Source of the DNA: Candidatus Latescibacterota bacterium
Lineage (GTDB): Bacteria; Latescibacterota; UBA2968; GCA-2709665
Assembly: GCA_965219455.1 (NCBI GenBank)
Contig: OZ244744.1
Span: 3,456,001-3,520,000, forward strand
Length of the DNA: 64,000 nucleotides
Reading direction: 5' to 3'
Program-made: the position numbers and the translations under genes
Part shown: positions 23,768 through 42,954 of the stretch, piece after piece
Numbering within the stretch: the first letter of the stretch is position 1
Layout: each line of letters begins with the position of its first letter
Notes under the pieces: model-generated
Databases searched by the model: none
Seen by the model: the letters and a program-made list of their open reading frames with translations, nothing else
Told to the model about the DNA's origin: nothing

Positions 23768-23953
23768 ATTGCCCGCTGGAACCGGCTGTCAGGTTACCCG
23801 AAAGTATCGCAGCCACAGAGGAAGTTTCAAGGGATTGGGGTTAAACCTCGGGATACCCTGCGGGAGCGTTTGAGGTGCGGGGTTTTTGTGTTTTGGATCG
23901 GTAACCGTCGAGTGTGCGACGGCTTTTTTGTCTTCGCGTCTGGAGGATTTACG

Positions 23954-24691
23954 ATGAATGACGTTGCTCTTTTGACCGTGAACCCGCTCGACTACGGGCG
24001 CTCGTTCCTGATTGGGAAGGGGCGAACAAATGAGGTACGCTTCTGGATCGAGTCGCGCACCCGCGTTATCGACGAAAGGGAGGGGATCAGCGAGGATTTC
24101 TACCAGACCGCCTCCTGCAAGAGCGAGAACACGTTTCATAAAAGGGATTTATTTCAACGTGACAACTACGATTATCTGCCGATCTTCAGCGCCGGGTACG
24201 GACTCATCTTCCGGCGTCCCGCCTGTCTCAGCGCCCGCTACCGGGAAACGCGGCCGTACGAGGAGATGTTCGGCGGCTACGACCTCCACCTCGTCGAGGG
24301 CGAGCGCATTCGGGAGTTGCCGTCGAACGCGTCCATCCGCGAGGAAACGTATCGCTTCGCGCCGCTGGTCTCGCAGACCGAAATCCGCAACGAAGAAACC
24401 GGGCTGAGGGCCCTGATCGAATGTCCGGTGAAGACCATGAACACCCGCCGCGAGGACGACCGCTACCAGGTCGACACCGGTCCGCTCGCCTTTCCCGATC
24501 TCTCCACGAGGCCTGAACGGCTTGTCGACTGCCTCTCGCTCGCCTTCGTTGCCTTCAACGCCTCCCACTTCGCCGATTTCGTGGTCGAAGCGCCAACCCC
24601 CGTCGATGCCCGCCATCCCGATCTACAAGTCCACCACTTCTCGAAGATCGTCAGCCTCCCGGCGCGCAACCGGCTTTTCGCAGTTGAGTAG
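23954..24691 (+). CDS. Hypothetical protein
   Basis: GGAGG ribosome-binding site before ATG 23954; host-like codon pattern; no recognised family. Confidence 0.65.
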   Translation: MNDVALLTVNPLDYGRSFLIGKGRTNEVRFWIESRTRVIDEREGISEDFYQTASCKSENTFHKRDLFQRDNYDYLPIFSAGYGLIFRRPACLSARYRETRPYEEMFGGYDLHLVEGERIRELPSNASIREETYRFAPLVSQTEIRNEETGLRALIECPVKTMNTRREDDRYQVDTGPLAFPDLSTRPERLVDCLSLAFVAFNASHFADFVVEAPTPVDARHPDLQVHHFSKIVSLPARNRLFAVE

Positions 24692-25036
24692 GGTTTTAGC
24701 TACATTATAGCTACAATATCGGAGGTGTTCTTGCGACATTCAAGTCCTGCGGTTTGCCGCAGGGTGACGATGCCGTCACTGGCCGCTTCCCTGATGCGAG
24801 CCTCTACAGCAGATCTGTATTGAACTTTACCATGATGGCACGATCGTTGCCTGTGTTATGCTCCTTGACAGCGCATTGGAAAAGGGGCATTTATTGTAGG
24901 AAATTGTACTTCGATTTCTTGCATTAAGCGCGCGACTTCAGTCGCGACGCGGATCCCGCATTCTCCCGAGAGGTACTCGACTGCCGGAAACGCACACTGT
25001 AACGACGTCGAGAATTGAATCGAAAGGTATTTTCTC

Positions 25037-26329
25037 ATGATTACTGAGATTGAGATCGGGGGCTACCGGCTTCTAGACGAATTCAAGGCGGACCTCACGC
25101 CGACCACGGTGGTGATTGGTGCGAACGCGGTTGGCAAGAGTACGCTTATTGATTGTCTGCAACTGATAGGGGAGTGTTGCGAGGTCCCGCTAAATACGGC
25201 AATGGGTTGGCATCACGGGGCAGCGTCGATGCTTTCTTCGGGCAATGTTAACAGACAGTTGACATGGAACATCACTTTTCATCACCCCACCCTATCGGAC
25301 ATATTGCACTTAGATGCAGAAAAATCGCTGATATACGAGGTCGTATTGGTGCCAGATACTCAGAACCAAATGTATTCCCGATACGAAGTTCTCAAAAATC
25401 AAGTGCCAGCACCTGGTCATAAGGAACCCTTCAAGTTCTTGGAGGCGACCCCATACCGGCAGCAGATATTCGACAGAAGACAGGGAAAGTTCACAACGTT
25501 TGATGAAGCGCAATCGTCAACTGAAATTGTACGTGAGTCCAATTCCGGAGAGACTGCCCACCCGAGCGTTCCGGCACAGACCGCGCAACAAGAAGTGGCC
25601 TTGCTGCTTTCGCAGATTAGGTTTTTCAACGAGTTTCCCATTCCTTCTTTGGTGCGGATTTTGTTGGCACATATGGCGTTCTATCCGGGCTTCGATGTAA
25701 CACGTTCATCCTCGCTTCGCACGAAGGCCGCCGACATTTCGCCAGTTACGACATTATCGGGCAATGGCGACAATCTCGGTACGGTGCTGCACGAAATTCT
25801 GACTAGATATGACTACCGGTCATCTGCAGAGGAATTGCGCGAATTTCTGCGCGTAGCTTACCCGGCATTTGAGGAAATTCATTGCGACACTACCTATGGA
25901 ACGCCGCCGCAGGTGCTCGTGGGCGTGCGCGAGAAGGGCATGCGCAGGTCCATGAATCTCTGGGAACTTTCGGACGGTATGCTACGATTCCTCTGCCTGG
26001 CGACGGCTCTATTGAATCCAGTGCCTCGCATGACGGTAGCAATTGATGAACCCGAATTGGGCTTGCACCCTGGGCTTTTGCCCGTTGTCGCCGAAATGAT
26101 CAAGACAGCTGCTGAGCGCGCCCAGGTTCTGGTCACGACACACAGCCCGGATCTGCTCAACTGTTTCGATATAGCCGATGTGGCTGTGATGGCTCGTGAT
26201 TCGGATAATGCAAAGGTCGTATGGCATCGTCCGGCGAACCGTAAGACGCTCGTGGAAATGCTGGAGAATGTTGCCGGCGACACGCTTGGCGACCTACATC
26301 GCTCCGGCGAACTGGAGGCCGGCGCATGA
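25037..26329 (+). CDS. ABC/AAA_21-type ATPase
   Basis: Walker A GANAVGKS, signature ELSDGMLR, Walker B/D-loop IDEPELGLHP, H-loop TTHSP and C-terminal LGDL..SGEL. Confidence 0.9.
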   Translation: MITEIEIGGYRLLDEFKADLTPTTVVIGANAVGKSTLIDCLQLIGECCEVPLNTAMGWHHGAASMLSSGNVNRQLTWNITFHHPTLSDILHLDAEKSLIYEVVLVPDTQNQMYSRYEVLKNQVPAPGHKEPFKFLEATPYRQQIFDRRQGKFTTFDEAQSSTEIVRESNSGETAHPSVPAQTAQQEVALLLSQIRFFNEFPIPSLVRILLAHMAFYPGFDVTRSSSLRTKAADISPVTTLSGNGDNLGTVLHEILTRYDYRSSAEELREFLRVAYPAFEEIHCDTTYGTPPQVLVGVREKGMRRSMNLWELSDGMLRFLCLATALLNPVPRMTVAIDEPELGLHPGLLPVVAEMIKTAAERAQVLVTTHSPDLLNCFDIADVAVMARDSDNAKVVWHRPANRKTLVEMLENVAGDTLGDLHRSGELEAGA

Positions 26330-26991
26330 AGGTCTGGGTGTTTGTGGAGGGGAGGTCTGACATTGGGGCATTAAAGGCGTTGTGGGACGGGTGGAGGCGG
26401 AAACTTGGTGAAAGAGGTTGGGGGATTCAATTCATATCTCTCGAAAATAAGCACAAATATCTTAGAAAAATCGGCGCACAAGCGACCGGGAAATTGGTAG
26501 ACGATCGACTCGACCTGGTCGTGGGCCTACCAGATCTCTATCCGAATAAGGGCATTGCTGCGGAATACAAGCACAGGAATTTGGAGGATCTACGAGACGT
26601 GCAAAACCGGCTTGTCAGGCAGGATTTGGAAAAGCGGGGCATCAGAAGGGCTGATGTTGACAGCCATATAGACCGTTTTTACGCAAGCGCGATGAAACAT
26701 GACATGGAAGTGCTGCTCCTCGCGGCGACGAGTCAACTTCGGTCCCGCCTAAACATGTCGAACGAACCCGGAAGCTGGCAACGACCGCCCGAAAAACAGA
26801 ATCAAGAAAGACCACCGAAGAGAGTCGTCGAAGAACTCTTCAAGAGACATCTCAAGCGGTCCTATCGAGAAATTACGGATAGCGATGCCATCCTGAGAAA
26901 CGCAGACCTTCACGACATCGCGGAGCATTGTCCAACATTCGGCGCCATGATCGATTGGATCGGCGAGAAAACACACGTCCCCGGATATTGA
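26326..26991 (+). CDS. DUF4276-like (TOPRIM-type) protein
   Basis: VFVEGRSD, LPDLY, HDMEVLLLA, PE...PPK..V, Y....D and CPTF..M..W; ATGA overlap with the ATPase. Confidence 0.75.
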   Translation: MKVWVFVEGRSDIGALKALWDGWRRKLGERGWGIQFISLENKHKYLRKIGAQATGKLVDDRLDLVVGLPDLYPNKGIAAEYKHRNLEDLRDVQNRLVRQDLEKRGIRRADVDSHIDRFYASAMKHDMEVLLLAATSQLRSRLNMSNEPGSWQRPPEKQNQERPPKRVVEELFKRHLKRSYREITDSDAILRNADLHDIAEHCPTFGAMIDWIGEKTHVPGY

Positions 26992-27030
26992 TCCACCGGC
27001 CTATTCCGTTGCCTCCGCACGAAAACAGAC

Positions 27031-30000
27031 ATGAATAAACCGATCTCCCAGTCTGAATCACCACGGTGTCCGTCCTGCGGTGCCTCAATGGCGCTTCGCA
27101 CGGCGAAGAAGGGACGAAACCCCGGAGAGCAGTTCTGGGGCTGTACAAAATTCCCCAGGTGTCGAGGTACGCGGAATGTCAGGGATGAATCGGAGCCGGC
27201 TGAACCCTCCCGCAAGAGCCGGTTGTCGCCGGACGCCCTGCTTCCGGTCGAATGGATCGAAGGCGTGCGGCGCGCGGACTTCATCCCCGAGTACGTGTCC
27301 GTGGGAGCAGTGCCCGGAATCCTTCAGGATCGGCTCGGCGACGACGCGCGTTTGACACGGGCCCTCAGCCAGTGCGTGCTGCTCTCGCGCAGAAGCCGCG
27401 AACGCGGGGAAGGGGTCGAGCACGTCCGCTTCGCAACCGCGCTGCTTCTCAAGTTGCTGCGTCGCGGCCATACGCCCCTGGCGACGTTGGATGTCGAACG
27501 CGAGGGACTGCGTTCCCGCGGCCTTTTGAATAGGGTAAGCGAAATCGACGAAGATGGGACGGATGTCGGTTGGGCGCCACAGCCCGGCGCGTTGCTGCGT
27601 TTGACAGCCGAAGCCGTCCTTGCCGGGGTAACTGAAAAAGTCCCTTTTATTCTCGACCCTGCTTTCGACTTCGATACCGGTTCGGACGAATCGCTGCTGC
27701 AGAGCCAGGCCGAAGCCTGGTTCCTCAATCAATGGGTGCCCACGGCGCTCGGGCCCGCGTCCGGCCACTGGTTCACCCCGCAGGCGCCATTGGACAGGTT
27801 GGTTGAATCCGCAGGGGAATACGGGAGCGGCGCCCGTCGTGTTGACTTTCTCTTCAGCCACCCCGGTGGATCGCCTTTCGCCATGGAGATCGATGGTCCG
27901 GAACACGAGGGATCGGTCGAGGTGGACAAAGCGCGCGATGAATCATTGCGTTCCATCGGGATTGACGTTCTACGCATCACCAACGCGGAAGTGCAGAATG
28001 GCCGTGGAGCGATGCTAGAAAAGATTCGCGGTCGATGCCAACGGGTACTCACCGCATTCGCCCGGGCCACAGGCGAGGAGAGGGCTGTCGCGTCACTCGC
28101 CGTTGAGTGCGCCAACGCGGCCAGGGTGCAGTTCGTCGTCGCCCGCGCCCTGGCGTATGGATGGCTGACGCCGGGCGAAAGCTGGGAGATCGATATCCGT
28201 GGGGCCGGATCGCCGGCCGCGTCCGGCGTGCTGGACGCGCTTCGGTTACTGGCAGGCATCGATATTCTGTATGGCGGCTGTTCGGTCCCAACCGGATGTA
28301 CTGTACGCGCGGATAACGGGTTCGTCAGGACCTGGATGCGGGAGGGCGGCGGGCGGTGGGTGACGACCACTGTTTTCGACGCACCCGTGGACCGGTTGGC
28401 CATTGCCGTCGAGTCCACAACGAGCCCGTTCCATCGCGTCAGTGGCGAAGGGCTGGATTTCGTCATTCGCCCGGTGTACGTCCCGGCATTGATCGCGGCC
28501 GGGCAGTCGTTCGATCTGCGCCGGCGAGCAACGGCGGTGTCGACCTACGAAGAGGCCCGCGCGCCGCTCAGGATGTTCCTCCGGAACATATTTCGCAAAC
28601 GGGATTTCCGCCCCATGCAGGGGCAGGCCATCTTCAATGTGCTTCGACAAAACGACAGCGTCGTGCTGCTTCAGACCGGCGGGGGCAAGAGTATAATCTA
28701 TCAGCTCGCCGGGCTCCTGATGCCCGGCGTAACACTGGTGGTCGATCCCATAACCGCGTTAATTGAAGACCAGGTCGAGGGTCTAAGGTCCTACGGAATC
28801 GATCGGGCGGCTTCAATTACCAGCTATCTTGCCTCCCGGGAAGAGCGCGAGCGTCTGCTCCGCAGGGTCGAACGGGGCGAGTACCTGTTCGTGCTGCATG
28901 CGCCTGAACGGCTGCAGTCGCCCCAATTCCGGACGTCGCTCCGCGCGCTGGTGGAGTGCACGTTTGTCAACCTGGCCGTCATCGATGAAGCGCACTGCGT
29001 ATCGGAGTGGGGGCACGACTTCCGGCCAGCGTATCTGAATCTCGCGAACAACCTGAGGAGGCTCGGCGCGGACCGTGAATTTCGTCCGCCGCCGCTCCTG
29101 GCCCTGACCGGAACCGCCTCGCGCGCGGTCCTTAGGGATATGCTTGCCGATTTAGGTATCGACAGGAACCGCTCGGACGCGTTGATCCGCCCCGAGTCGT
29201 TCGACCGTTCCGAAATTCGCTTTGAAATCGTACGCACCTCCCCGGTCCAGGAACCCTCGGCGGCACTGCGGGGCGTACTGAACGCATTGCCCGGTAAATT
29301 CGGGTTGCCACGGGCGGAGTTCTACCGGTCGTCTGGCGCCGAAACGGCTTCGGGTATCGTATTCGTTCCCACGGTCAAGGCTCGTACCTACGGGGTGCAG
29401 GATGCACGCCGTATTGTGCAACAGGCAACGGGTGCGGACGTCACCATATACTCCGGCAACCCGCCCTCGTCCCTGGATGCCGACAAATGGCATGCGCAGA
29501 AACGCGAGAACGCGGCCGACTTCAAAGCCAATCGTGTGCCCGTGCTCGTTGCCACAAAGGCGTTCGGGATGGGGATCGACAAACCGAATATCCGATATAC
29601 CGTGCATTTCGGAATGCCCATGTCCCTCGAGAGCTTCTACCAGGAGGCCGGCCGCGCGGGGCGAGACCGAAAACTCGCGCGCGCGACGGTCGTGTTTTCG
29701 GAATACGACCCGGGTCGCTCCGGGGAACTGATTGATCCCGACCTTGATCTCGAGTCCCTTCGCGGCAGGTTTGAAGAGATTGAAGGGAATCGCCAAACAG
29801 CGGATGACCTTTCCCGCGCGTTGTGGTTCCACCTGCAGGCGTTCGGTGGGGCGGCGCGCGAAATCGACGATGTAACCGATCTGCTGAATGCGCTGGGAGA
29901 TCTCTCTGCCAGGCAACGTATTGAACGACCCTATGCAGACGGTGACAACCGAATCAGACAAGAGAAAGCTATCTACAGGCTAATCAGGCTCGGCGTGATT

Positions 30001-30891
30001 GACGACTATGAAGTCGAGTTCGGATCCCGCCGCTTTGTGCTTCACGTGGATGCGTTCGATTTCGATCGCTGTAAAGGCAGACTGCTTGAATTCGTCCGCT
30101 CGGCCCAACCGGGGAGGACCAGGCCTCTCGTTCGAAGGGTCAATGGGGTCGATACCGGCCAGCCGCGGGAAGCGGCGCTTGCGCTCGCGACGATTCTGAT
30201 CGAGTTTACGTACGACCTCGTCGAACGTTCGCGGCGGGGGATGATCCGGGAAGCCCTGCTCCTCGCCCGTCAGGCGCGAGACGACGCGGAGATTCGCGTA
30301 AGGCTGCTCCACTACCTTCAGGAAGGCTTTGGCGCCGAGCACATCGAAGGACTGCTACAGAACGAGGACGTGGAGTTGGCCGCATGGTGGGATCTTGTTT
30401 CCAAAGTGCAGTCGGTGATGGACGCGGGCGAGCTTCGTGGTCTATGTATTCGCGCGCTCGAGTCCTACCCGGACCACCCGGGGCTTCTGTTCGCCCGCGC
30501 GCTTTCCGAGTCCATGTGCACGGATCATGATGAAACCGTGAGCTCCCGGGGAATCGGCGCCGCGATCCGGTCCGGCGTTGAGAAATATGGGATTTCGCGG
30601 ACGGATATCGAGGCGGCTGTCGACGAGATGTACGACCTCGCTTCAACTCGCGCGGCTGATCTCGGTCCGTCGCTCACCGTTGCGCTGCTCGATCTCGCCG
30701 ATGCGGCGCCGGGTTTTGAATACGTGGAAAAAAGAGGATTTCAGCGTGCGGTTGAACTCGATGATCCTCGCATCAGCGCAGTAATTGCAACGCGGCGGCT
30801 TGGCCGTCTCGTCGGTCAGTTGAAGCGAGCGGCTGACCGGGTGACGGGCCAGTTTGAGGCGCCTGGCGTTGCGAAAGCTTTGGGAGCGTGA
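27031..30891 (+). CDS. RecQ-like SF2 helicase fused to a topoisomerase-type C4 zinc finger and a DUF559/Vsr-like nuclease domain
   Basis: Zinc finger CPSCG...FWGCTKFPRC. Nuclease-like RVDF...EIDGPEH...DKARD..LRSIGIDVLRI. Helicase TGGGKS, APERL, IDEAHCVSEWGHDFRPAY, ALTGTA, ATKAFGMGIDKPNIR and QEAGRAGRD. Confidence 0.88.
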   Translation: MNKPISQSESPRCPSCGASMALRTAKKGRNPGEQFWGCTKFPRCRGTRNVRDESEPAEPSRKSRLSPDALLPVEWIEGVRRADFIPEYVSVGAVPGILQDRLGDDARLTRALSQCVLLSRRSRERGEGVEHVRFATALLLKLLRRGHTPLATLDVEREGLRSRGLLNRVSEIDEDGTDVGWAPQPGALLRLTAEAVLAGVTEKVPFILDPAFDFDTGSDESLLQSQAEAWFLNQWVPTALGPASGHWFTPQAPLDRLVESAGEYGSGARRVDFLFSHPGGSPFAMEIDGPEHEGSVEVDKARDESLRSIGIDVLRITNAEVQNGRGAMLEKIRGRCQRVLTAFARATGEERAVASLAVECANAARVQFVVARALAYGWLTPGESWEIDIRGAGSPAASGVLDALRLLAGIDILYGGCSVPTGCTVRADNGFVRTWMREGGGRWVTTTVFDAPVDRLAIAVESTTSPFHRVSGEGLDFVIRPVYVPALIAAGQSFDLRRRATAVSTYEEARAPLRMFLRNIFRKRDFRPMQGQAIFNVLRQNDSVVLLQTGGGKSIIYQLAGLLMPGVTLVVDPITALIEDQVEGLRSYGIDRAASITSYLASREERERLLRRVERGEYLFVLHAPERLQSPQFRTSLRALVECTFVNLAVIDEAHCVSEWGHDFRPAYLNLANNLRRLGADREFRPPPLLALTGTASRAVLRDMLADLGIDRNRSDALIRPESFDRSEIRFEIVRTSPVQEPSAALRGVLNALPGKFGLPRAEFYRSSGAETASGIVFVPTVKARTYGVQDARRIVQQATGADVTIYSGNPPSSLDADKWHAQKRENAADFKANRVPVLVATKAFGMGIDKPNIRYTVHFGMPMSLESFYQEAGRAGRDRKLARATVVFSEYDPGRSGELIDPDLDLESLRGRFEEIEGNRQTADDLSRALWFHLQAFGGAAREIDDVTDLLNALGDLSARQRIERPYADGDNRIRQEKAIYRLIRLGVIDDYEVEFGSRRFVLHVDAFDFDRCKGRLLEFVRSAQPGRTRPLVRRVNGVDTGQPREAALALATILIEFTYDLVERSRRGMIREALLLARQARDDAEIRVRLLHYLQEGFGAEHIEGLLQNEDVELAAWWDLVSKVQSVMDAGELRGLCIRALESYPDHPGLLFARALSESMCTDHDETVSSRGIGAAIRSGVEKYGISRTDIEAAVDEMYDLASTRAADLGPSLTVALLDLADAAPGFEYVEKRGFQRAVELDDPRISAVIATRRLGRLVGQLKRAADRVTGQFEAPGVAKALGA

Positions 30892-30892
30892 G

Positions 30893-31312
30893 ATGGATAT
30901 ATTGGAAGAACTACAGGAACGGCTCAATGAAACCGAGCGTCGGGCCACGGACGTGGTGCAGCGTCTCGAAAAGTTCGATGCGCTCCAAAATTCTCTTGCC
31001 AACGCAGGCAGAGGGCTCGGTGAAGCCAATGTCATCGTTTCGGATCTCGCCTCTGTGGCGAGAGACGCGATTGATTCGCTGAATAGTGCCCTTTCAGCGT
31101 TCCAGAATGCCGTTGAACTCTTGCAACGCACCGAACCGTTGCAGGTCGACGAAAGGCTCACGGCGATTGAGGAAGCGCTCGCTCGAATCAATGAAAAGCT
31201 CGGCGTCGTAGACGAGCTTTCGTCGGATATCCGCAACACTCGAAAAGCCGTGGAACGACTTTCGCGGAGGTCAATTTTCCACAAGATCTTCGGAAGGAAC
31301 GCGGAGACCTGA
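30893..31312 (+). CDS. Small coiled-coil protein
   Basis: ATG 1 nt after the helicase stop; heptad-like L/E/R-rich sequence ending SIFHKIFGR. Confidence 0.7.
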   Translation: MDILEELQERLNETERRATDVVQRLEKFDALQNSLANAGRGLGEANVIVSDLASVARDAIDSLNSALSAFQNAVELLQRTEPLQVDERLTAIEEALARINEKLGVVDELSSDIRNTRKAVERLSRRSIFHKIFGRNAET

Positions 31313-31693
31313 TCGAGAACCGAAAACGGAAACCCGCGACCGGATCTTTATGTAGCGTCTCCTGAGAGCCCCATCACCCCAGCACGGACGGCACCAAGGC
31401 ATCGTGATTAAGATTCTTCCGCACAGAACGTCTGTGAAGCTAACGCATCATTGTGGAAGACATCCCAGCTGAATCTGTCGGACCACGAGTCGATCTCAGC
31501 AAGCATCGGACGCTGTCTGCAGCCTTCCGGCCGCACATGCGGCCGTTGGGGACATCGCCCGAACGGTGCTTGTACTAAATCCCTTGACAGAGAATCAAAA
31601 TGAGGCATTAATGTTTGAATTCTATAGTAAGACCCCAGACGTTATTGCTTCAAGTTTCTTAGTGGCATTTGCGGTATAGACCGAAAAACCTAA

Positions 31694-33390
31694 CCCGATT
31701 AATTCATGAATCGTCAAGGAGTGTATTTCAATGAAGCAGAAAGAGCTTGCGAGTAAGACGAGAAACGAAAGCGCACGGGCTGTGACGGATATGGCGTGTT
31801 CAAGCCGTGTGGGCGGCGCCTGCTGGCAGCACGTTTGCTCCGTGGCGTGAGTTTTCCCTGAATTCCGCTGTCAAGAGCACAGACGTCTCCATGGCTGTTG
31901 GTCGTGTCGGTCCAAACGTGAAGTCGGGGTCAGCACGTCAATGGGTTATGGAACATCCGTTGCCAGATTATAGAGGATCTTGCCGTAAAGGTGTTTGAGT
32001 GGAAACGCCGTTGGCAGATGGAACGTGATTTTGGTTTTCAGTTCACAAACGCGCCCGGCGACTTTCAAGATGCGGTTTTGCAGCGTATTAAACTGGGCGT
32101 TCGTCCACGTAGTGCCGCGCAACCCGATATGGGCCAGGGCGTGCACCAACACATAGGCGGCGCTGTGGAGAAAGAGCCGGAAGTGATTGGCCTGGAAGGT
32201 GTGGCAAGAGGTGCGATCGGAATGCAGAAAGGTCTTGTGATTCTTGATGAAGTTTTCCATCCTGCCGCGTGAGCAATAAGCGGTTTTGTAGATGAATGAC
32301 GGTTGTGCGCCGTTCAGGTTGGTGACCACGAATCGGATATTGTGACCTTGCGGGGTGACTTCTGCCTTGCAGATGATGCGGCGTGGGGAAGACCAGCTGC
32401 CGGCCTGATAGTCCCACGAGCGATACAGGCGCACAGGTTTTCCCCCATCGGCATACAGCGCTTTGGCTTGGTCCATCAAGGGCTGTGCCAGCGGCAGCAG
32501 CAGAGCGTTTCCGCCTTGTCCGAGGATAAAAAACACATCGTTTTCGTCACACATCGTGTGCACTTCCGGACACGAAAAATGTGAATCGCCACGCAACAGG
32601 ATCTTGACATCGGGCCATGCGTGACGCAGGTAGGCGATCACCCGTTTGAGAATCGACACGATCTCTTTGCCCGTGGGTCGGCGGCCCGGACGCAAGACCG
32701 TCGTGATCAACTTGCCGGTTTGCCCTTCATAGATATGCAGGGGTTGGTAGCAATAGCCCTTGAAATACGCATTGAATAACGACAACTGCTGGGATCCATA
32801 CACCTTGTCTTCCGTGTCATCGATATCCAACAGGATGGCTTCGGGGGGGTGCTTATACGAGGCGATAAACGCATCGGCAAAGGCCTTCGCGATCCGATAT
32901 AAATCACCTCTGGTGATCCGGTTCTCGAACCGACTCATCGTGGGTTGACTGGCCAGGTTGGCACCGGTGACCGGCAACCGATCGCAGGCCGCCTTGAAGC
33001 CGGGGTCGCTACGCAACGCATTGCAGTCGTTCGCATCCTCATACCCACACGCCATCTGAAAGACACGCTGAGTCAGCAGGTCCATCGTCGGGTGATCCAC
33101 GTAACTTGGATGCCGACGATCTGTTATCGCCGCAACGATCCGACACAAAATGCCGATTTTGGACTCCACCTCTCGAAGCAGCATCGCCCCGGTGTCGCTG
33201 GTCAGGATGCCCCCGTCGAAGGTGGCTTCTACCCGTTTGCCAGAAACACTTGCGAAAGACATCCTATGTTGTTTATCTTGACCTGCCACGGTAGTTTCCT
33301 CCCGGTTCATTGTTATTAGGTTATTCGCGTAACCATAATATAATACAATGACTTGGGTAAGGAAACTACCTTTTTTGTGAATTATTCAGA
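31694..33390 (-). mobile_element. IS1380-family insertion sequence, 1697 bp
   Basis: Imperfect terminal IRs (CCCGATTAATTCATGAA vs reverse-complement TCTGAATAATTCACAAA, 12/17). Flanked by CTAA at 31690-31693 and 33391-33394; contains the transposase. Confidence 0.85.
31946..33310 (-). CDS. IS1380-family DDE transposase
   Basis: FDGG.LTSD.G, GYED.ND...LRSDP, LASQPTMSRFEN, LDIDDT, RGDSHF, Y.SRGRMENFIK and ANHFRL. Confidence 0.95.
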   Translation of the reverse strand: MNREETTVAGQDKQHRMSFASVSGKRVEATFDGGILTSDTGAMLLREVESKIGILCRIVAAITDRRHPSYVDHPTMDLLTQRVFQMACGYEDANDCNALRSDPGFKAACDRLPVTGANLASQPTMSRFENRITRGDLYRIAKAFADAFIASYKHPPEAILLDIDDTEDKVYGSQQLSLFNAYFKGYCYQPLHIYEGQTGKLITTVLRPGRRPTGKEIVSILKRVIAYLRHAWPDVKILLRGDSHFSCPEVHTMCDENDVFFILGQGGNALLLPLAQPLMDQAKALYADGGKPVRLYRSWDYQAGSWSSPRRIICKAEVTPQGHNIRFVVTNLNGAQPSFIYKTAYCSRGRMENFIKNHKTFLHSDRTSCHTFQANHFRLFLHSAAYVLVHALAHIGLRGTTWTNAQFNTLQNRILKVAGRVCELKTKITFHLPTAFPLKHLYGKILYNLATDVP

Positions 33391-33403
33391 CTAAGAGACT
33401 CCA

Positions 33404-34618
33404 GTGACTGATAAACGCACATCCGATTTTTCCGCCGTCGATTCCACGCTTGGTTATCTCTATCAAGTTCGATTGGCATTGTTCTGGACGCTTAGACGGC
33501 TAAAAACGGACCCCGGGTTCTTGATTGGCATCGAGACGCTCGACGATGTTACCTTTGAAACCACGGGCGGCAAACCTACCGAGCTGCTTCAGACCAAACA
33601 CCACAAGAACGGCGTCGGCTCATTGACCGACGCCAGTCCAGATATATGGAAGACCTTGCGCATCTGGTTTGAGGGTCACCGGTCAGGACAAATTCCCGGG
33701 AGCAGTAATCTATATCTGGTCACCACCTCTTCTGCGCCGGATGGAAGCGCGGCCTGGAATCTTCGTGCTAGACCGCGAGATGTGTCTGCCGCACGGCAGA
33801 CACTCACAGCAACAGCAACAGCTTCTACGAACAATGCGAATGCCAAGGCTTACCAAGTCTTTCTTGATTCCGACCAATCCGTACAAATCGATATCTTGAG
33901 TAGAGTGACGGTGTTTGATGCGGCTCCCAACGTCATAGATTTGGATAACGAGCTTAAACAAGAAGTTTATTGGGCCGCGGGAAGGGAACACCATTTCGCA
34001 TTTCTCCAGCGACTGGAAGGTTGGTGGTTCCACCGAATTTTGCATCAACTTGCGAACGCTTCATCCGACCGTGTCGGATCAATTGAACTGGAAGCACAGA
34101 TGTCGGACCTTCGTGAGCAGTTTAAGCAAGAAGCTTTACCTATAGATGATGATCTTTTAGAATTCTCGCTTGATGAGGCAACGAGAGAAGCACATGAGGA
34201 TTACATATTTGTCCGGCAGATCGAGCTTACGAAAGCTGGAAGGCGCCGAATAGCAGCTGCCATTCGAGACTACTACCGAGCATTCGAACAACGATCTCGT
34301 TGGTTCCGTGACGATCTAGTGGTCGATATGGATTTGCACAAGTATGAGAAGCGCCTTGTAGAAGAGTGGGAGCTCGTATTCGATGCAATGTGTGATGAAC
34401 TCGGCGAGGCTGCGATCGAGACCGCAAAAGAAGGCGCGGCCCGAAATCTTCTCGCATGGGCCGAACAAACGCTATTTCCAATCCGCCCCAACGTAACCGA
34501 GCCTTTCGTCAGTCGCGGCTCCTTGCACATGCTATCCGATGACCTACGGGTCGGTTGGCACATTGATTTTCAATACCATCTCGCTCGTCTACTAGGCGCG
34601 AATATGGGGACGTCATGA
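33404..34618 (+). CDS. lmuA: Lamassu/ABC-3C effector with Cap4-like PD-(D/E)XK nuclease domain
   Basis: GYLYQ, IETLDDV, LLQTKHH, LTDASPDIWKTLRIW and C-terminal GSLHMLSD...GWH; first gene of the triad. Confidence 0.8.
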   Translation: MTDKRTSDFSAVDSTLGYLYQVRLALFWTLRRLKTDPGFLIGIETLDDVTFETTGGKPTELLQTKHHKNGVGSLTDASPDIWKTLRIWFEGHRSGQIPGSSNLYLVTTSSAPDGSAAWNLRARPRDVSAARQTLTATATASTNNANAKAYQVFLDSDQSVQIDILSRVTVFDAAPNVIDLDNELKQEVYWAAGREHHFAFLQRLEGWWFHRILHQLANASSDRVGSIELEAQMSDLREQFKQEALPIDDDLLEFSLDEATREAHEDYIFVRQIELTKAGRRRIAAAIRDYYRAFEQRSRWFRDDLVVDMDLHKYEKRLVEEWELVFDAMCDELGEAAIETAKEGAARNLLAWAEQTLFPIRPNVTEPFVSRGSLHMLSDDLRVGWHIDFQYHLARLLGANMGTS

Positions 34619-35112
34619 CCCGATGGCATGAACGCTCGCGTGAGGAACAAACGCTCCTAAACCCGGCGTTCTGTTCTCTCTTGCTCTGGTGCGCTGCACG
34701 CGGGTATGCCAGTATCAACCTGCGTGGCTTATCCTTCGAGGAAGCATTCCTGGTCTTGCCGATGGTACTTCACCGCACAACTAGGGAAGCGCTTCCACGC
34801 GATACTCGCACGTCTTTGGCTGTATGGATCAATAACAATCCCCTCGCTCAAGGAAAGATTGCGACTAGAGCGAAACTACTGGTCGAATATACTAAAGAAG
34901 GCATGTTCTTTGGCGGAACCCATGGCCTGATCAGCATTGACGAAGGTAAACTCCGCGCCAATGAAGACTTGCGGCTAACTCTCAATCGTACGTTGCAAGG
35001 AGCGAGTGATGAGGTACGCCTTTGTACTCGCAGGGCAGAATTTGTCGGCAAGTGGTTCGGGCAAACTGGTAGCGGATCAACGGTCTTCGCATTGATAGGG
35101 GTGCGTCCATAA
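34615..35112 (+). CDS. lmuC: ABC-3C middle component (Lamassu LmuC-like)
   Basis: LLNPAFC, FLVLPMVLH..TR..LP, GKWF and LIGVRP; ATGA overlap with lmuA. Confidence 0.8.
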   Translation: MTRWHERSREEQTLLNPAFCSLLLWCAARGYASINLRGLSFEEAFLVLPMVLHRTTREALPRDTRTSLAVWINNNPLAQGKIATRAKLLVEYTKEGMFFGGTHGLISIDEGKLRANEDLRLTLNRTLQGASDEVRLCTRRAEFVGKWFGQTGSGSTVFALIGVRP

Positions 35113-35114
35113 CC

Positions 35115-37055
35115 ATGCAGATTCTTGATATAGTTGTGTACAGCCACGATGGTCGACAGCGCGTACTGTCGCTCAAACCGGGTCAGGTCAACATCATTAC
35201 CGGCGCATCCAAAACAGGAAAATCTGCGCTCGTCGATATAGTCGACTACTGTTTTGGTGCTGGCGAGTGCCGAGTTCCTGAAGGACCGATTCGACGCTCT
35301 GTATCATGGTTTGGACTCAGGTTTGAACTGGACAGCGGTGAAGCATTCATCGCTCGTCGATGTCCCGGTCCTGCGGCCGCTTCGAGCGAGGATTGTTTTG
35401 TAGACGTCGGCGGCCAGGTTGTTATCCCTGAATACAGTGGTCTTCGACAAACGACGAATACGAGAGGACTCGGTGCGCTGCTCACAGGTTGGGGTGGCAT
35501 CAAAGATTATATCCATGAGCCCGCGCAAGGTCAAAGCAGACCACCCCTAACGGTGACTATTCGCCATGCCCTCGCGCTCTGTTTTCAGCCGCAAGATGAG
35601 ATTATCAGGCGTCAACAGCTATTTCACGGAGCAGCGGACAATTTCATCGCACAAGCTCTGAGGGATACACTGCCTTATCTGTTAGGTGCTGTGGACGACG
35701 AATACATTAACAAACGCGAGCAGCTTAGGCGGCTCCGCAGGCGGCTACGTCAATCTGAAAGGCAGCTTAATGAACTCTCGTCTTTAAGGGGCGAAGGCGT
35801 TACGAAAGCATTGACTCTTTTGGCTGAGGCACGTAATGTCGGCCTGTCTGCGTCATTGGCAAGCACTTGGGAGGAAGCGGTACCCGCACTTCGTGAAGTC
35901 GCAGAGACTCCCGGAACTTCCATTGATATTGAGATATCAGACGAAGCAGAGTACCATCGGCTCAGCGACGAACGAAATCGACTTCGCAGCCAGTTGCGTA
36001 GACTTCAAGATGAAATTGCCGCGGCTAAAGCCTTCGAACACGATACGTCCGGTTTTTCGCGTGAGGCATCCGAACAACGCGCCCGGCTGATGTCGATCGG
36101 GATCTTTGAGGGGACGGAACAAAGTCATGCCTGTCCGTTTTGCGCTCAGGACCTGCGTGAAGCAACAGATCTCCCAGAGATGAGTGAGCTAAGAGAAGCA
36201 CTAACGGAAATTTCATCGCGCCTTGACACAGTTTCTCGTGCATCTCCTCAGATCGAGCGGGCGATTGCTGAGCTCGAATCAAAGCTGCAAAGCGTTCAAG
36301 CGAACCTAGTGAGAAACCGTTCGGAGATGGAAGCAGTACGAACCGAAAGTGACCGAGTTCAGCAACTAAGAGATGAGGCTTCACGTCGCGCGCACACCAT
36401 GGGGCGCATTAGCCTATATCTTGAGAGTCTGCCCGAATTGCCAGACAGCCAAGCCCTTGAGCGAGAGGCTGAACGATTGCGAGAGCAATGTGAAAGCCTT
36501 GAGGACGAGTTAAGCGAGGGACGAGTTAAGGAACGTATTGATTCAATCACTTCAATTCTAAGCCAACAAATGAGTGGTTGGGCACGCACTTTGGATTTAG
36601 AACACTCTGGATCTCCGCTGCGGCTAGATCTCAAGAAACTAACGATCGTTGCGGATACAGCCGACGGACCCGTGCCGATGGATCGCATGGGGAGCGGCGA
36701 AAACTGGGTCGGCTATCATCTCATCGGCCACCTAGCCCTCCACAGATGGTTTGTAGACCGAGGTCGGCCGGTTCCGAGGTTCTTGTTCTTGGATCAGCCC
36801 TCGCAGATTTACTTCCCGCCAGAGACGGATATGGACGTTGACGAGTTAATTTCATCGGTTAGCGAGAATGATCGGGAGGCCGTATCGCGAATGTTTCGAT
36901 TCGTGTTCAAGATTGTTCAGGAAGTCGCGCCACAGTTCCAAGTTGTAATTACTGAACATGCTGACATCAACCAAGACTGGTTCCAAGAAGCCGTCACTGA
37001 ACGATGGCGGCAGGGTCTTAAGCTTGTCCCGCCAGACTGGCCTCGGAATGCCTGA
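35115..37055 (+). CDS. lmuB: SMC-like ABC ATPase with DUF3732 domain (Lamassu LmuB)
   Basis: NIITGASKTGKS, DYCFG, coiled coils with a CPFC hook, GSGENWVGYHL, FLDQPSQIYFP and QVVITEH. Confidence 0.88.
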   Translation: MQILDIVVYSHDGRQRVLSLKPGQVNIITGASKTGKSALVDIVDYCFGAGECRVPEGPIRRSVSWFGLRFELDSGEAFIARRCPGPAAASSEDCFVDVGGQVVIPEYSGLRQTTNTRGLGALLTGWGGIKDYIHEPAQGQSRPPLTVTIRHALALCFQPQDEIIRRQQLFHGAADNFIAQALRDTLPYLLGAVDDEYINKREQLRRLRRRLRQSERQLNELSSLRGEGVTKALTLLAEARNVGLSASLASTWEEAVPALREVAETPGTSIDIEISDEAEYHRLSDERNRLRSQLRRLQDEIAAAKAFEHDTSGFSREASEQRARLMSIGIFEGTEQSHACPFCAQDLREATDLPEMSELREALTEISSRLDTVSRASPQIERAIAELESKLQSVQANLVRNRSEMEAVRTESDRVQQLRDEASRRAHTMGRISLYLESLPELPDSQALEREAERLREQCESLEDELSEGRVKERIDSITSILSQQMSGWARTLDLEHSGSPLRLDLKKLTIVADTADGPVPMDRMGSGENWVGYHLIGHLALHRWFVDRGRPVPRFLFLDQPSQIYFPPETDMDVDELISSVSENDREAVSRMFRFVFKIVQEVAPQFQVVITEHADINQDWFQEAVTERWRQGLKLVPPDWPRNA

Positions 37056-37537
37056 CCTCAATTCGTCATATTTCGGCGCCACAAGCTTGGATTATCCCAG
37101 AAGTATACAGGTGATCTGATGTCACAATTCCGTGATTCTTAAGCTCACCGGATGTGAACAGATAAACAGCGTATCTGGGCGGAATTAATTCCACATTTCT
37201 CGCGGCTTGGCAGAGCTTTCGATCGCTTGGTTTGTCGAATTAAGGTTATCCATTGGGCGCCGCCTCGTTAAATAGTCAATGTAACCATGCCCTTGGACTG
37301 AATCCGAAGTAGGCTGCGCCAGACGTTTATCGAGTAGGGCCCTACGTGCCAATATATAGTGAGACAACTCCCCATCCGAGTTTAGTGTAGTCTTGAGGGC
37401 GGAGAGGAGAGCATGAGATGCGTTCAGCCGCCGCGTTACCGCAGTCGAAACCGCTCCCAGCGTTTTCAGTTCGTACGAGAACCACGAGGAGTCTAGACTC
37501 CCTATCATTCCGTTATTGATCGCAAAAAGGAGACTCC

Positions 37538-39940
37538 ATGCGACCCGAAATATTGACCAACCGCCGGCGGACGTCGGTGCCTGCCGTGGAAACCCCGCTG
37601 AGCAGGCGTTATAAACGCATCCTGGAAAACTGGGTGCCAATAGGCCTGAACTATTTCGAAGATTGGCCGGAGCGTCCCAACTGCGGGCATTTTTTCGGCG
37701 GGGCCCACTGGTACGGCAGCGACACGGCCGGACCGGCCTTCGTCTTTGCCGCGCTTGCGAATTCCCCCGAATACGACGCGCAACGGACCGGTTGCTCTAA
37801 AAAGGAGCTTCGGGAGATGGCACTCAAGGGCATCCGCTACCTCTGCTATACCCACGACACGGGTCCGGCTGACTGTATTCGACCCGAAAAGAGCCTTGGC
37901 AATCCCGCTACCTGGGGCACCAAGTGGGGCGAACGCGGCCGGGGGTTTTTCCCCGAGAGCCAATGCGGCACGAACCTTTCCGACGTCGGCCTGGTCGCCC
38001 TCTTGCTGGGCGACATTGTAGACGACGAGACGTGGACGATGATTGCACGCATGCACGAGGACTACGCCGAGCGGTTCGGAGCCATGGCGCCCAAGAGCGG
38101 CGTCTTCACCAACACGCAGATGGAAGAGAACGGCTGGACGTCGTGCGGCCTGGCTTCGGTTGAATGTTTCCTGAGCAACTCGCCCCACGTCAAATCCTGG
38201 GCCGAAACAGCCCGTCGCTGGATGTTCTCCACGGCCACAACCCAGCAGGACACGAAGAACCTTGCGCCGTTTTCAGACGGTCAGACCGTACGGGAACTCA
38301 CCGGCCAGACTTTCACCGCGCTGCCGGACTACATGGCCGAAAACCACGGCATGGTGCACCCAAGCTACACCGGCAGTTCGGTCCTGTTCCTGGGGCGGCT
38401 CGGCATCATCTACGGGACGTTCGGCGCGGATGTTCCGGAACATGGCCTATTCAACCGGCAGGAAATCTACGACCAGCTCAAACGTACCACGGACCGGACC
38501 GGCTCGATGCATCCCGTGCAGGGCATGGACTGGCCGTATCTCTCGCCCGACCCGGGCACGCTCACCCATGCGACGGCCGCCTTGTTCCTGAACGACCCGG
38601 ACGCCGCGTATTTCGAACGCCAGGCGCTTGAGACCCTGGAACAGCGCGCTGAGAGCGCCGGCGGGCGCGTGCACGATCAACAGATCGCCGAAATTGTGCA
38701 TGGACCCCAGGATCCGCTTATCATCCGGGAACACAACATCGTCAATCCCGCCCACACCTATTTCTTCCACAGGATCTTCGGCGACGGACCGGATCCTGCA
38801 CCCTCGTCGCACGTCGAACGCAGCCTGAGGGGCGTAAAGGTCTATCCCCAATCCGGTTTCGTCTTTCAGAGACATCGCACCGGTCAAACTTCACTCTCGT
38901 GGCGAAACGACATCATGGCGCTGCCGTTGAACAAGGACGGCCTCTACACGGTCGCGCCGGCGTCAAATTCGTTTCTGGCCAGCATCGATGTTCAGGACAG
39001 GCCCGACAGCCACGACCTGATCTCCGTTCGAGTGGACGAACATCAGGAAGGTTTTGCCGCCGCGCTGATCCTGAACCGCGCCCAGCGATCGGTACGCCAG
39101 GAAGTGCTCTTTGCGGGCCTGCCCTCCGGCATCTCACTTTCCTGCGAGCGGCTGACGGCCAGAGAGAATATTACCGTCAATAGTGTCGACCAGGGTTTCC
39201 TTCGCATCGTCAACGAAGACTTCGACGCCCTGAAAGGAAACTGCAACGGTTACCGTACCGTCCACACGCCGGGCGGTTCGGTTCGCTTCAAGAGTCTCGT
39301 ATCGAGGGATCCCAACAGCGACGACGTCGAGACCTACGATCATCCGGCATGGCTCAACGTCGACAATCGTCTGGGCATTGTCTACACGGGTACTGGAAAG
39401 ACTGTCTACCACAACCGGCACTATTACCAGGTCTGGCGCGCCGTGGCGGATGACCTCATCCTCAGCCGCCTCGACGAACCGGTTCAGGTAACGTCGGGCA
39501 ATACGATCTCCGAACTCACTGCGCTGGTGGCCGCCGATCGCACCCATAGCAAAACGGGCGGCATCGAGTTCGTAATCATGCAAACAGAACGACCCGCCAT
39601 CGGCCTTCTCGCGGACGATCACCTGGCCGTGGCGAACTTCGGCGAAAAAGCCGGTGCGTTTACCTTCACGGCGAATCGCTCGGACCTCTCTGAGATTCCC
39701 ATCTTCGGAGGCGTTACCTGTGTCGACGGAGACAGCGTCGCCTATCCGCGAAGCCTCGGTTCAGGCGAAGCCCGTTTGCAGGAAGCGATCCTGAACATCG
39801 CCGCGGAGGGCGCGCTGGAAATCAACGCCGCCGAGACCGGCGTGGTGTGGGCCAGAAACACGGGCACGGCGCCGGCGCAGGTGACGCACAATGGCGCCGA
39901 AACGCAGATCCCGCCAGGGGCGATCGCAATCCTGAAATAG
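37538..39940 (+). CDS. Large hypothetical protein, possibly polysaccharide lyase/heparinase-like fold
   Basis: GGAG ribosome-binding site, 800 aa. Helical N-half with NT.MEEN.W, ENHG.VHP.Y and GMDW, then a beta-rich C-half. The fold is an inference. Confidence 0.6.
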   Translation: MRPEILTNRRRTSVPAVETPLSRRYKRILENWVPIGLNYFEDWPERPNCGHFFGGAHWYGSDTAGPAFVFAALANSPEYDAQRTGCSKKELREMALKGIRYLCYTHDTGPADCIRPEKSLGNPATWGTKWGERGRGFFPESQCGTNLSDVGLVALLLGDIVDDETWTMIARMHEDYAERFGAMAPKSGVFTNTQMEENGWTSCGLASVECFLSNSPHVKSWAETARRWMFSTATTQQDTKNLAPFSDGQTVRELTGQTFTALPDYMAENHGMVHPSYTGSSVLFLGRLGIIYGTFGADVPEHGLFNRQEIYDQLKRTTDRTGSMHPVQGMDWPYLSPDPGTLTHATAALFLNDPDAAYFERQALETLEQRAESAGGRVHDQQIAEIVHGPQDPLIIREHNIVNPAHTYFFHRIFGDGPDPAPSSHVERSLRGVKVYPQSGFVFQRHRTGQTSLSWRNDIMALPLNKDGLYTVAPASNSFLASIDVQDRPDSHDLISVRVDEHQEGFAAALILNRAQRSVRQEVLFAGLPSGISLSCERLTARENITVNSVDQGFLRIVNEDFDALKGNCNGYRTVHTPGGSVRFKSLVSRDPNSDDVETYDHPAWLNVDNRLGIVYTGTGKTVYHNRHYYQVWRAVADDLILSRLDEPVQVTSGNTISELTALVAADRTHSKTGGIEFVIMQTERPAIGLLADDHLAVANFGEKAGAFTFTANRSDLSEIPIFGGVTCVDGDSVAYPRSLGSGEARLQEAILNIAAEGALEINAAETGVVWARNTGTAPAQVTHNGAETQIPPGAIAILK

Positions 39941-42137: not shown

Positions 42138-42368
42138 CCCTTAAGCGGCAGGATCTCGCCCGCCATTCGTGATTGGATTCACTGTCTGGAAAGACAACCT
42201 GGCGCAAGGGTTTGCAACTGGGTTGGCGGATTCAGCCCCTTCACATTGTAAGACACTCGTTCTCGAGCCCGGGTTCGATAAAATCCGGGATAATTCTCCA
42301 TCCTTACACAAAAAAAAGGGCCTTACATACTTAACTTGACAAAAGGCTGGGGTTTGAAAGGAGTGGTT

Positions 42369-42617
42369 TTATGGGTTTGGTTCGTCGTCATCAGGAAGAG
42401 ACTTGCGAACACTGTCAGCGACTTTTTGAAGTTCGGTTTCGGCGTATGCTTCCTTCAAGAGAGGAAGTTTCGAAAGGCAGTCAGCGCGGTTTTGAAGGTC
42501 TAATCGAAGGCTATGTTTTTGGGAATCTGGTAAAGTCCGAAGAGTAACTTCGACGACGTTCTCGATGGCCAGTATGCGGAGTTCGAGATCTCGGAGTATA
42601 ATGCCTTTGATGTCCAC
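42369..42617 (-). CDS. Small hypothetical protein (element cargo)
   Basis: AAAGGAGG ribosome-binding site before GTG; 82 aa, helical. Confidence 0.6.
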   Translation of the reverse strand: MDIKGIILRDLELRILAIENVVEVTLRTLPDSQKHSLRLDLQNRADCLSKLPLLKEAYAETELQKVADSVRKSLPDDDEPNP

Positions 42618-42881
42618 AGAGAATCCTCCTTTTTTCTACCTAAGTCAAGGTGAAGTGCTTGACAAAAGGCTGGGGGTTTATGGAGCCCATTGAAAGCAGG
42701 GAGGGGCAGGGTGCATCCGAAGATTGAATAAGACGACGGATTCCCTTGAGAAGTTTTAAGACTGTCCTGATTAACCACTTCCAAAAAATGGTTCGGGGAC
42801 TTCTTCCTCAAAGATAAACAAACGAGATCCAAAACGGTTCATATAGATATCTTGTAGAGCGCCTCAGAGAAGCCCAAACAG

Positions 42882-42920: not shown

Positions 42921-42954
42921 GTGCTTTACACAACACCCAGGAGCGCTTCCTGGG

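Follow-up and report, generated by a model that had tools for sequence, protein, structure and literature searches.

Relatives of the four-gene locus

Zorya couples a membrane-anchored coiled-coil component (ZorAB) to a helicase-nuclease (ZorC/ZorD), and Hhe (Gao et al. 2020) is reportedly a single-gene defence that unites a helicase with a Vsr endonuclease. The helicase of Hhe is of the superfamily 1 (SF1) type, and its nuclease is C-terminal. Here we analysed a locus that bears comparison with these and with several other described systems. It consists of four genes, g1–g4, in a 64,000-nucleotide (nt) stretch of a Candidatus Latescibacterota bacterium genome (GenBank assembly GCA_965219455.1, contig OZ244744.1, positions 3,456,001 to 3,520,000), the whole of which is called the window below. 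The genes encode an ABC-type ATPase (g1), a DUF4276 protein (g2), a fusion of a zinc ribbon, a Vsr/DUF559-type nuclease and a RecQ-family helicase (g3), and a coiled-coil protein (g4). A first-pass annotation had presented the locus as a candidate undescribed defence system, while allowing that it might be two adjacent two-gene systems. Each pair was found alone, and the evidence favours the two-system option over the single unit. We put at about 0.8 the probability that the locus consists of two independent two-gene modules, g1–g2 and g3–g4, stacked in a chromosomal defence hotspot.

The g1–g2 half can be classed broadly with PARIS, OLD and Gabija. PARIS (AriA/AriB) is described in PMC11464382 as a defence system composed of an ABC ATPase with a TOPRIM protein. 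According to PMC12065111, DUF4276 is assigned to the TOPRIM superfamily and Mad4 is a DUF4276 homologue. The preprint of Payne et al. (bioRxiv 10.1101/2024.01.29.577857) presents HEC-01 as candidate 01 embedded in a helicase-methylase-ATPase (Hma) system, and names HEC-01B as a TOPRIM-like DUF4276 protein; the candidate is included in PADLOC-DB 2.0.0. We scanned the proteins of the locus against PADLOC 2.0.0, Pfam, NCBIfam and PHROGs; PADLOC results are given throughout as E-values from the profile library and do not represent the PADLOC program's own thresholds or system rules. The g1 protein matched Pfam AAA_21 (3.6e-29) and AAA_15 (2e-18), and its translation contained, as judged by eye, a Walker A motif (GANAVGKST), a signature-like motif (LSDGM), a Walker B motif (IDEPE) and an H-loop (TTHSP). 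Its best PADLOC match was to a HEC-01A model (PDLC04175, 7e-54), other HEC-01A models ranged from 4.3e-47 to 4e-22, and weaker, partial matches were obtained to AriA (1.3e-29), mad3 (1e-16), GajA and Old. The g2 protein matched DUF4276 (7.5e-16, 59.4 bits against a cut-off of 30.2) and, weakly, HEC-01B (3e-06, 4.7e-06 and 2.7e-05); residues E8, G9, S11, D63, D70, D126 and E128 were invariant among 25 orthologues.

Judged by these profile matches, g1–g2 corresponds to the already known candidate HEC-01, an ABC ATPase with a separate DUF4276/TOPRIM protein. The pair shares with HEC-01 the two-gene layout with overlapping genes as well as the profile matches, and differs from it in lying outside any Hma system and in its weak HEC-01B match. 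Like PARIS, OLD and Gabija, it combines an ABC ATPase of the AAA_15/AAA_21 type with a nuclease of the TOPRIM superfamily, but the TOPRIM protein here is DUF4276, neither the DUF4435 of AriB nor a fused OLD TOPRIM, and GajB is absent. Membership in PARIS was rejected, as g2 had no AriB match and its sole matches were to HEC-01B in PADLOC and DUF4276 in Pfam. Likewise, g1 resembles Mad3 of MADS (NCBIfam, 3.4e-30, besides the PADLOC mad3 match) but reached only 105.5 bits against the cut-off of 420 for the Mad3 equivalog NF047739, and Pfam and PADLOC scans of the locus showed no methyltransferase or other mad genes. By analogy with PARIS and OLD-type systems, the ATPase g1 would sense a phage cue and would then license the TOPRIM nuclease g2.

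Distribution of the two gene pairs

Species-representative genomes were scanned with RecQ-core patterns, yielding 80 survey loci. Of these, 55 were ordinary RecQ genes (20 of which were used as controls), and about two dozen loci extended beyond the RecQ core. A tblastn search with g1 and g2 returned nothing in any of the 80 loci, and the 134 neighbouring open reading frames (ORFs) around 21 full-length g3 relatives, scanned with Pfam and PADLOC, included neither an AAA_21 plus DUF4276 pair nor a recurrent third gene. Conversely, a search for g2 in 168 genomes of the phylum found it outside the window's family in nine genomes of one family (f2) and twelve of another (f3). Full-length matches were present at 19 loci, in 19 genomes of these two families, where g1 was 69–80% and g2 58–71% identical to the window's genes and g2 began where g1 ended; the ~1.5 kb downstream of g2 contained no g3 match at any of the 19. 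Two genomes, G039 and G047, carried the g1–g2 pair together with a divergent g3-like gene (~37–38% identical) that was not linked to it: the distance between the two modules is 778 kb in G039, and in G047 they lie on different contigs. In both, the g3-like gene had its own overlapping coiled-coil partner, which ended in KRGIFFSWR. A metagenome scan with an N-terminal g3 alignment gave mostly generic zinc-ribbon matches, 2 of the 80 kept loci passing the first ~110 query residues; on metagenome contig L167 the g3–g4 pair was present and g1/g2 were absent. With g1/g2 missing from 21 of 21 distant g3 loci and g3 missing from 19 g1–g2 loci, the proposal of one four-gene defence system was not borne out. 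As to gene order in unrelated genomes, the arrangement of g3 with g4 was conserved (21/21 distant loci) and that of g1–g2 next to g3–g4 was not; the latter adjacency is confined to one bacterial family.

Several observations weigh against two independent defence modules. All four genes stand together in six same-genus genomes and in the window, and the g2–g3 gap measures 37–42 nt in the window, G001, G009, G011 and G013. In G016, which belongs to another genus, g1–g2 is kept at a different chromosomal place with a g3 remnant, corresponding to amino acids (aa) 5–107 only, ~40 nt downstream; the block was therefore moved or kept as a unit. One RNA-library contig of a related strain spans positions 26357–27066, across the g2–g3 junction, and metatranscriptome contigs of the related strain cover parts of g1–g4, although contigs of this kind cannot show a single transcript, DNA can occur in such libraries, and uncovered parts mean nothing. 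Finally, HEC-01 is stated in the preprint of Payne et al. to have given no protection against the phages tested in E. coli. Within the window's family the four genes are inherited as one block and are perhaps also transcribed as one. Such same-family synteny is not independent evidence for one system, because it reflects shared descent.

The content of the hotspot differed among genomes of the genus. Its two flank genes (Table 1) were 77–94% identical across the genus and had no Pfam, NCBIfam or PADLOC family. The site was empty in G002, G006 and G008, and in G003 it held an insertion sequence (IS) beside the upstream flank. G007 carried g1, a frameshifted g2 and a gene for an AbiP-like membrane protein, with g3–g4 absent; G004 and G014 carried g1–g2, the AbiP-like gene and g3–g4; G001, G009 and G013 carried g1–g2–g3–g4; and G011 and the window, the only two in the genus with Lamassu, carried g1–g2–g3–g4 plus Lamassu. 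In G004 and G014 the final ~70 nt of the upstream flank gene occur a second time, together with a short intergenic segment, just before g3; we interpret this duplication as the probable scar left when two alternative cassettes were joined in tandem. A full-length g3 orthologue (one of them split) was present in 7 of the 14 other genomes of the genus. The split gene was that of G011, interrupted near aa 362, and G005 had an IS-truncated g3 together with g4, with no g1/g2 orthologue in its fragmented assembly.

Two further observations concern genes at this site. At the start of contig C8 of G005 (L096:1-133), the sequence resembles the 3' end of a transposase and g3 begins only at about residue 102, which marks an IS insertion into g3 in that genome. 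The AbiP-like gene lies directly after g2 in G014 (L095:12223-12993, minus strand), G004 (L093:6816-7595, plus strand) and G007 (L133:13403-14245, minus strand), and is absent from the window. It encodes a protein of 256–280 aa with two N-terminal hydrophobic segments; the G014 copy matched PADLOC AbiP at 1.9e-15, and the G007 copy gave no match at 1e-08.

In the window, the layout and domain calls of the first-pass annotation proved sound. The four genes are co-directional and tightly spaced, with an ATGA overlap of g1 and g2 read from the sequence, a 39-nt gap between g2 and g3 and a 1-nt gap between g3 and g4. Pfam, NCBIfam and PADLOC confirmed the domains expected of g1–g3 (AAA_21/AAA_15; DUF4276 of the TOPRIM superfamily; Zn_ribbon_Top1, DUF559 and a RecQ core). 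Pfam and PADLOC identified the downstream neighbours as a DDE_Tnp_1_4 transposase followed by LmuA-LmuC-LmuB of Lamassu, in agreement with the defence-island setting that had been proposed. All three Lamassu genes lie in one operon, with PADLOC matches of 2.4e-67 (LmuA), 1.4e-08 (LmuC) and 5e-140 (LmuB) and the Pfam families CTD7, MC3 (1e-39, LmuC) and DUF3732. Chance is excluded as an origin of g1–g4, because the ORFs are long and orthologues of all four, at 62–90% identity, occur in seven same-genus genomes. The GC content was 0.53 for g1, 0.51 for g2, 0.62 for g3, 0.54 for g4, 0.51–0.53 for Lamassu and 0.58–0.62 for the flanks. A scan of positions 24500–32000 for promoters and terminators gave counts not above those of shuffled sequence, and a repeat search of 24000–38000 found nothing meaningful. 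Further downstream, in 41000–45000, the GC content falls to 0.46 around 42000–45000, compared with 0.58 for the whole window, and this low-GC segment may be another acquired one.

Table 1. Features of the hotspot in the window, with g3 domains listed below their gene
Feature	Position	Strand	Basis or remark
Upstream flank gene of hotspot	23870-24691	+	273 aa, conserved across genus
g1, ABC-type ATPase	25037-26329	+	430 aa ORF
g2, DUF4276 protein	26326-26991	+	221 aa ORF
g3, Zn ribbon + Vsr/DUF559 nuclease + RecQ-family helicase	27031-30891	+	1286 aa ORF
g3 aa 13-50, C4 topoisomerase-I-type zinc ribbon (CxxC...CxxxxxC)	27067-27180	+	Pfam Zn_ribbon_Top1, 2.9e-08, 33.8 bits vs 32
g3 aa ~215-345, Vsr/DUF559-type PD-(D/E)xK-like endonuclease domain	27673-28065	+	Pfam DUF559 and AlphaFold2 (AF2) model
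g3 aa 513-905, RecQ-family superfamily 2 (SF2) helicase core	28567-29745	+	Walker A TGGGKS, motif II DEAH
g3 aa 906-1286, winged-helix-like element then alpha-helical repeat	29746-30888	+	AF2 model
g4, coiled-coil protein	30893-31312	+	139 aa from ATG; longer TTG start given by the ORF lister, 30854
IS transposase	31946-33310	-	Pfam DDE_Tnp_1_4, 2.5e-155; context only, outside both modules
Lamassu LmuA-LmuC-LmuB	33404-37055	+	PADLOC and Pfam; context, third stacked module
Downstream flank gene of hotspot	37538-39940	+	800 aa, conserved across genus

The nuclease-helicase g3 and its partner g4

The g3 protein combines four regions (Table 1), each with its own pattern of conservation or structural likeness. 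The zinc-ribbon cysteines C13, C16, C38 and C44 were invariant in an 11-sequence alignment. For the nuclease, the Pfam DUF559 match covered aa 284–335 (1.7e-07, 31.5 bits against a cut-off of 20.6), and an AF2 model of aa 1–520 (pLDDT 86.9) placed a Vsr/DUF559 fold at aa ~215–345. Structural comparison of this fold gave Z 9.9 to 3hrl (root-mean-square deviation 3.1, 94 aa), Z 9.6 to I-Bth0305I (3r3p) and Z 8.0 to Vsr (1cw0). Foldseek with the N-terminal model found nothing at E <= 0.001, its top rows agreeing with the VIA-align result. Nuclease residues R270, D272, F273, E286, D288, H292, D299 and D303 were conserved in 90% or more of 26 sequences, and helicase residues K553, D652, E653 and H655 were invariant in 20. 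The helicase core scored 235.3 bits over aa 517–897 against the RecQ-family model TIGR00614 (cut-off 219.8). It was the only part of g3 (aa 513–905) to match solved structures by sequence, with E-values from 1e-42 to 1e-52 for RecQ (4tmu, 3.7e-52; 1oyw, 2.9e-51), RECQ5 (2.9e-48), BLM and RECQ1. The C-terminal region was modelled with pLDDT 87.4 and pTM 0.81 (aa 900–1286); Foldseek gave no specific structural relative at E <= 0.001, and VIA-align returned generic helical repeats (best Z 9.0) and RecQL4 5lst (Z 5.9, model residues 22–200).

Homologues of g3 were found in at least 120 protein clusters at 46–92% identity, mostly near full length; the relatives comprised at least 141 clusters in all. 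Among viral contigs, 0 of 19 loci extended beyond the RecQ core, and the full-length g3 family was not seen there. Two assignments were tried and rejected: g3 is not a housekeeping RecQ (TIGR01389, 265.7 bits against a cut-off of 640.2), nor is it a member of Dpd by the NCBIfam DpdF model (NF041063, 148.2 bits against 550). Other RecQ-core genes and variants of g3 were also seen. A second RecQ-core gene lies outside the window (G000:C1:1216826-1217845, minus strand), in an ORF of ~1760–1790 aa that is also present in most of the genus and encodes another large RecQ-like fusion protein. Planctomycete relatives of g3 at L016:24-4811 and L020:107-5581 reach 1595 and 1824 aa, far longer than g3 itself, and carry several hundred added N-terminal residues. 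At L015:8899-13602 (Spongiisociaceae), the g3-like gene occurs as two ORFs, 8899–11361 and 12202–13602, ~840 nt apart with two short minus-strand ORFs between them; an insertion, an intein or a frameshift could account for this split.

The g3 relatives extended across many phyla and one archaeon at 30–60% identity. Record titles of the loci include Bryobacterales, Dehalococcoidia, Alcanivorax, Bacillota, Acidimicrobiia, Saccharibacteria, Opitutae, Planctomycetes, Cryosericum and a Woesearchaeote. In all 21 distant full-length g3 loci, a co-directional ORF of 109–304 aa started between -16 and +38 nt from the helicase stop codon, and the g3 stop and g4 start codons often overlapped; g4 is probably translationally coupled to g3. 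The g4 protein itself had no family at curated cut-off in Pfam or NCBIfam; the earlier description of it as a coiled-coil protein holds at the level of sub-threshold coiled-coil matches, and its best ESM Atlas score was 0.84, below the meaningful level. The coiled coil is divergent (mean column identity 17%), and tblastn with g4 matched, among the 80 loci, only the closest one (L001). Profile searches were made in two rounds. The first, with a profile built from eight own-genus g4 sequences plus L001 and searched against the 2024 ORFs of 60 aa or more in 25 loci, gave 13 ORFs at E <= 0.026, each directly following the helicase gene; L001, a training row, was among them. The second round gave 21 matches at E <= 0.21, six of them training members, and all were post-helicase ORFs, including those of L017 and the archaeal L019. 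As a point against uniform partnership, the downstream ORFs of L024 and L042 (2/21) and of L098–L100 were missed by the profile and are assigned by position and composition only. Taken over the distant loci, the linkage of g3 and g4 is conserved across phyla, and g4 is an obligatory neighbour of g3.

The partner proteins differed at their C-terminus. A hydrophobic helix, called where a 19-residue Kyte-Doolittle mean reached at least 2.07 within the last ~25 residues, was present in 14 of the 21 distant loci; the C-terminus was basic or basic-aromatic in the remaining 7 and in all eight own-genus g4 proteins. Those of the window's genus have no transmembrane helix and end in a basic-aromatic tail (RRSIFHKIFGR...). 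A complex prediction for g3 (aa 500–1286) with g4 scored 0.06 against a mark of 0.32, a value that speaks neither for nor against binding. In G023, the g4-like partner (L100:6332-7300, minus strand) reaches 322 aa through a tandem-repeated internal unit of ~37 aa (...NELHNLVEKLAEKQQLNEIDEEVKQIGNFAKETAKSSTDAIADIDTQV...), and its orthologues in G047 and G039 have 176–178 aa; coiled-coil length is evolving through repeat expansion.

When compared with described systems, g3–g4 is apparently an unnamed pair of the helicase-nuclease defence kind. It had no match to a dedicated model in PADLOC 2.0.0, Pfam, NCBIfam or PHROGs, so the first-pass statement that this is not a named system held for g3–g4, while g1–g2 was recognised by the HEC-01A/HEC-01B profiles and the match of the locus to a modelled system concerns that half only. 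A literature search did not find a published description of the pair; it did not cover the HEC/PDC candidate tables in preprint supplements, which may bear on the matter. The pair would work in a like manner to Nhi, of which it is not a member. As in Hhe, whose nuclease is reported in bioRxiv 10.1101/2022.06.16.496414 to be required for defence, a helicase and a Vsr-type endonuclease share one polypeptide, but g3 differs in its N-terminal nuclease, its RecQ (SF2) core, its zinc ribbon and its obligatory small partner. No PADLOC model named Hhe was among the 25 families matched by g3 at E <= 0.01, the library's content of Hhe models being unchecked.

PsyrTA and RqlHI, as they are described, consist of a RecQ-like helicase with a small restraining partner, which in PsyrTA is a DprA-like antitoxin. 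Similarly, g3 is a RecQ-like helicase with a small, closely linked partner, and the PADLOC PsyrT profile matches its core at 2.5e-62. The partner here is instead a coiled coil, often with a transmembrane tail, and g3 adds a zinc ribbon, a nuclease and a different C-terminal domain. Membership in PsyrTA was rejected: g4 matched neither PsyrA (PADLOC) nor a DprA-type family (Pfam), and the PsyrT profile aligned over positions 9–208 of 689 only. Of the PADLOC profiles, those of DpdF matched the g3 core best (9.8e-86), but only the helicase core aligned (profile positions 7–356 of 610), and the PADLOC scan of the other ten proteins around g3 gave no match to any Dpd model. Druantia DruE-DruH is described in bioRxiv 10.64898/2026.05.13.724313 as a helicase-nuclease effector with a partner. 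The likeness of g3–g4 to Druantia and Zorya would lie in a translocating helicase-nuclease under partner control; there is no sequence relation beyond the SF2 fold, and in place of a MotAB-like complex there is one small protein, g4. One relative of g3 does lie beside ZorC/ZorD, yet as a separate gene. At this locus (L042:2507-12677, a Rhodoferax metagenome-assembled genome), the g3-like gene and its coiled-coil partner follow ZorC (3.6e-216) and ZorD (E = 0) and precede a WYL/WCX regulator, an arrangement that may be plain stacking or a hint of an association with Zorya.

Possible defence role and meaning of the locus

We rate the chance that g3–g4 is a defence module as close to even, possibly a little better, because of its hotspot location, its patchy presence in the genus, its frequent decay, its spread over phyla and an archaeon, and its PADLOC neighbours. 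A strong PADLOC neighbour (E <= 1e-50, within ~4 kb) was found at 8 of 21 g3 loci and at 2 of 20 ordinary-RecQ control loci (one-sided Fisher test, p = 0.04), the neighbours of g3 loci being a type I methyltransferase, DruE, ZacC, AbiEi/Eii, PDC-S01, HEC-09, ZorC/ZorD and a PD-T4-6-like kinase. Some features of this comparison count against a defence role: the enrichment is modest, dropping to 7/21 (p = 0.076) without the generic kinase match, the loci are few and the ORF calls crude, and about 13 of the 21 distant g3 loci have no strong defence neighbour.

The furthest-reaching reading, to which we give slightly less than even odds, is that g3–g4 represents a new, widespread two-gene anti-phage system found in at least 10 bacterial phyla and in DPANN archaea, in which a tail-anchored coiled coil would hold or position the effector g3 at the inner membrane until it is released or activated on foreign DNA at its entry or at replication forks. 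The zinc ribbon is of the type that binds single-stranded DNA, and g3 would load on such DNA, or on ends or forks of incoming or replicating foreign DNA, and would then translocate along it and cut it. Until triggered, g3 might be restrained by g4 as RqlH is by RqlI; alternatively, g4 might tether or position g3 at the membrane. Most lineages have a g4 that is predicted to be tail-anchored, and the others have one with a basic-aromatic tail.

The pair could also be chiefly a toxin-antitoxin-like addiction pair, as PsyrTA/RqlHI, in which g3 would be genotoxic, g4 would neutralise it, and any defence would come through abortive infection. The PsyrT match of the g3 core, the restraint of a RecQ-like helicase by a small partner in PsyrTA/RqlHI, and the strict linkage of g4 to g3 with often overlapping codons are consistent with this, but the antitoxin of PsyrTA resembles DprA, g4 is a coiled coil unrelated to it that gave no match to PsyrA, and PsyrT lacks both zinc ribbon and nuclease. 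We consider such a role unlikely as the chief one; it overlaps with the two-module explanation and need not displace it.

Considerably less probable is that g3–g4 serves as an accessory helicase-nuclease of DNA repair or recombination, a specialised RecQ paralogue that came into the island by chance or by hitch-hiking. This would suit a RecQ-family core above the NCBIfam subfamily cut-off, a nuclease model resembling Vsr, since Vsr-type nucleases act in mismatch repair, and the ~13 distant loci without a strong defence neighbour, several of which lie amid housekeeping genes. It fits poorly with the patchiness of g3 in the genus, its place alongside Lamassu and an AbiP-like gene in a hotspot of variable content, its repeated decay (disrupted by an IS in G005, split in G011 and reduced to a remnant in G016), its spread over many phyla and one archaeon, the excess of PADLOC neighbours over controls, and a score far below that of housekeeping RecQ.

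It is highly improbable that all four genes form one functional system, in which the ATPase/TOPRIM pair would be the sensor or the first effector and would feed into the nuclease-helicase with its partner: the co-directional, tightly spaced genes, their co-occurrence in the genus, the tight g2–g3 junction shared with the G016 remnant and the RNA-library contig across that junction speak for it, but each pair occurs alone many times, G007 has g1–g2 without g3–g4, another gene and a duplicated flank fragment separate g2 from g3 in G004 and G014, the modules are unlinked in G039 and G047, the GC content of g1–g2 and g3 lies ~10 points apart, and the same-genus synteny is shared descent.

Returning to the two-module explanation, these results indicate that genes of a defence island can be closely spaced and share an orientation without belonging to one system. 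The locus offers a worked example of cassette stacking in a hotspot, with HEC-01, an AbiP-like gene, a nuclease-RecQ pair and Lamassu. The frequent stand-alone HEC-01 in the window's bacterial class provides native hosts for the study of HEC-01. The part of lasting interest is g3–g4, a conserved nuclease-helicase fusion with an obligatory, often membrane-anchored partner. If g3–g4 proves to be an immune system, it would be a RecQ-based addition to the helicase-nuclease class of defence, and it poses the question of what a tail-anchored coiled coil does for a DNA-degrading motor.

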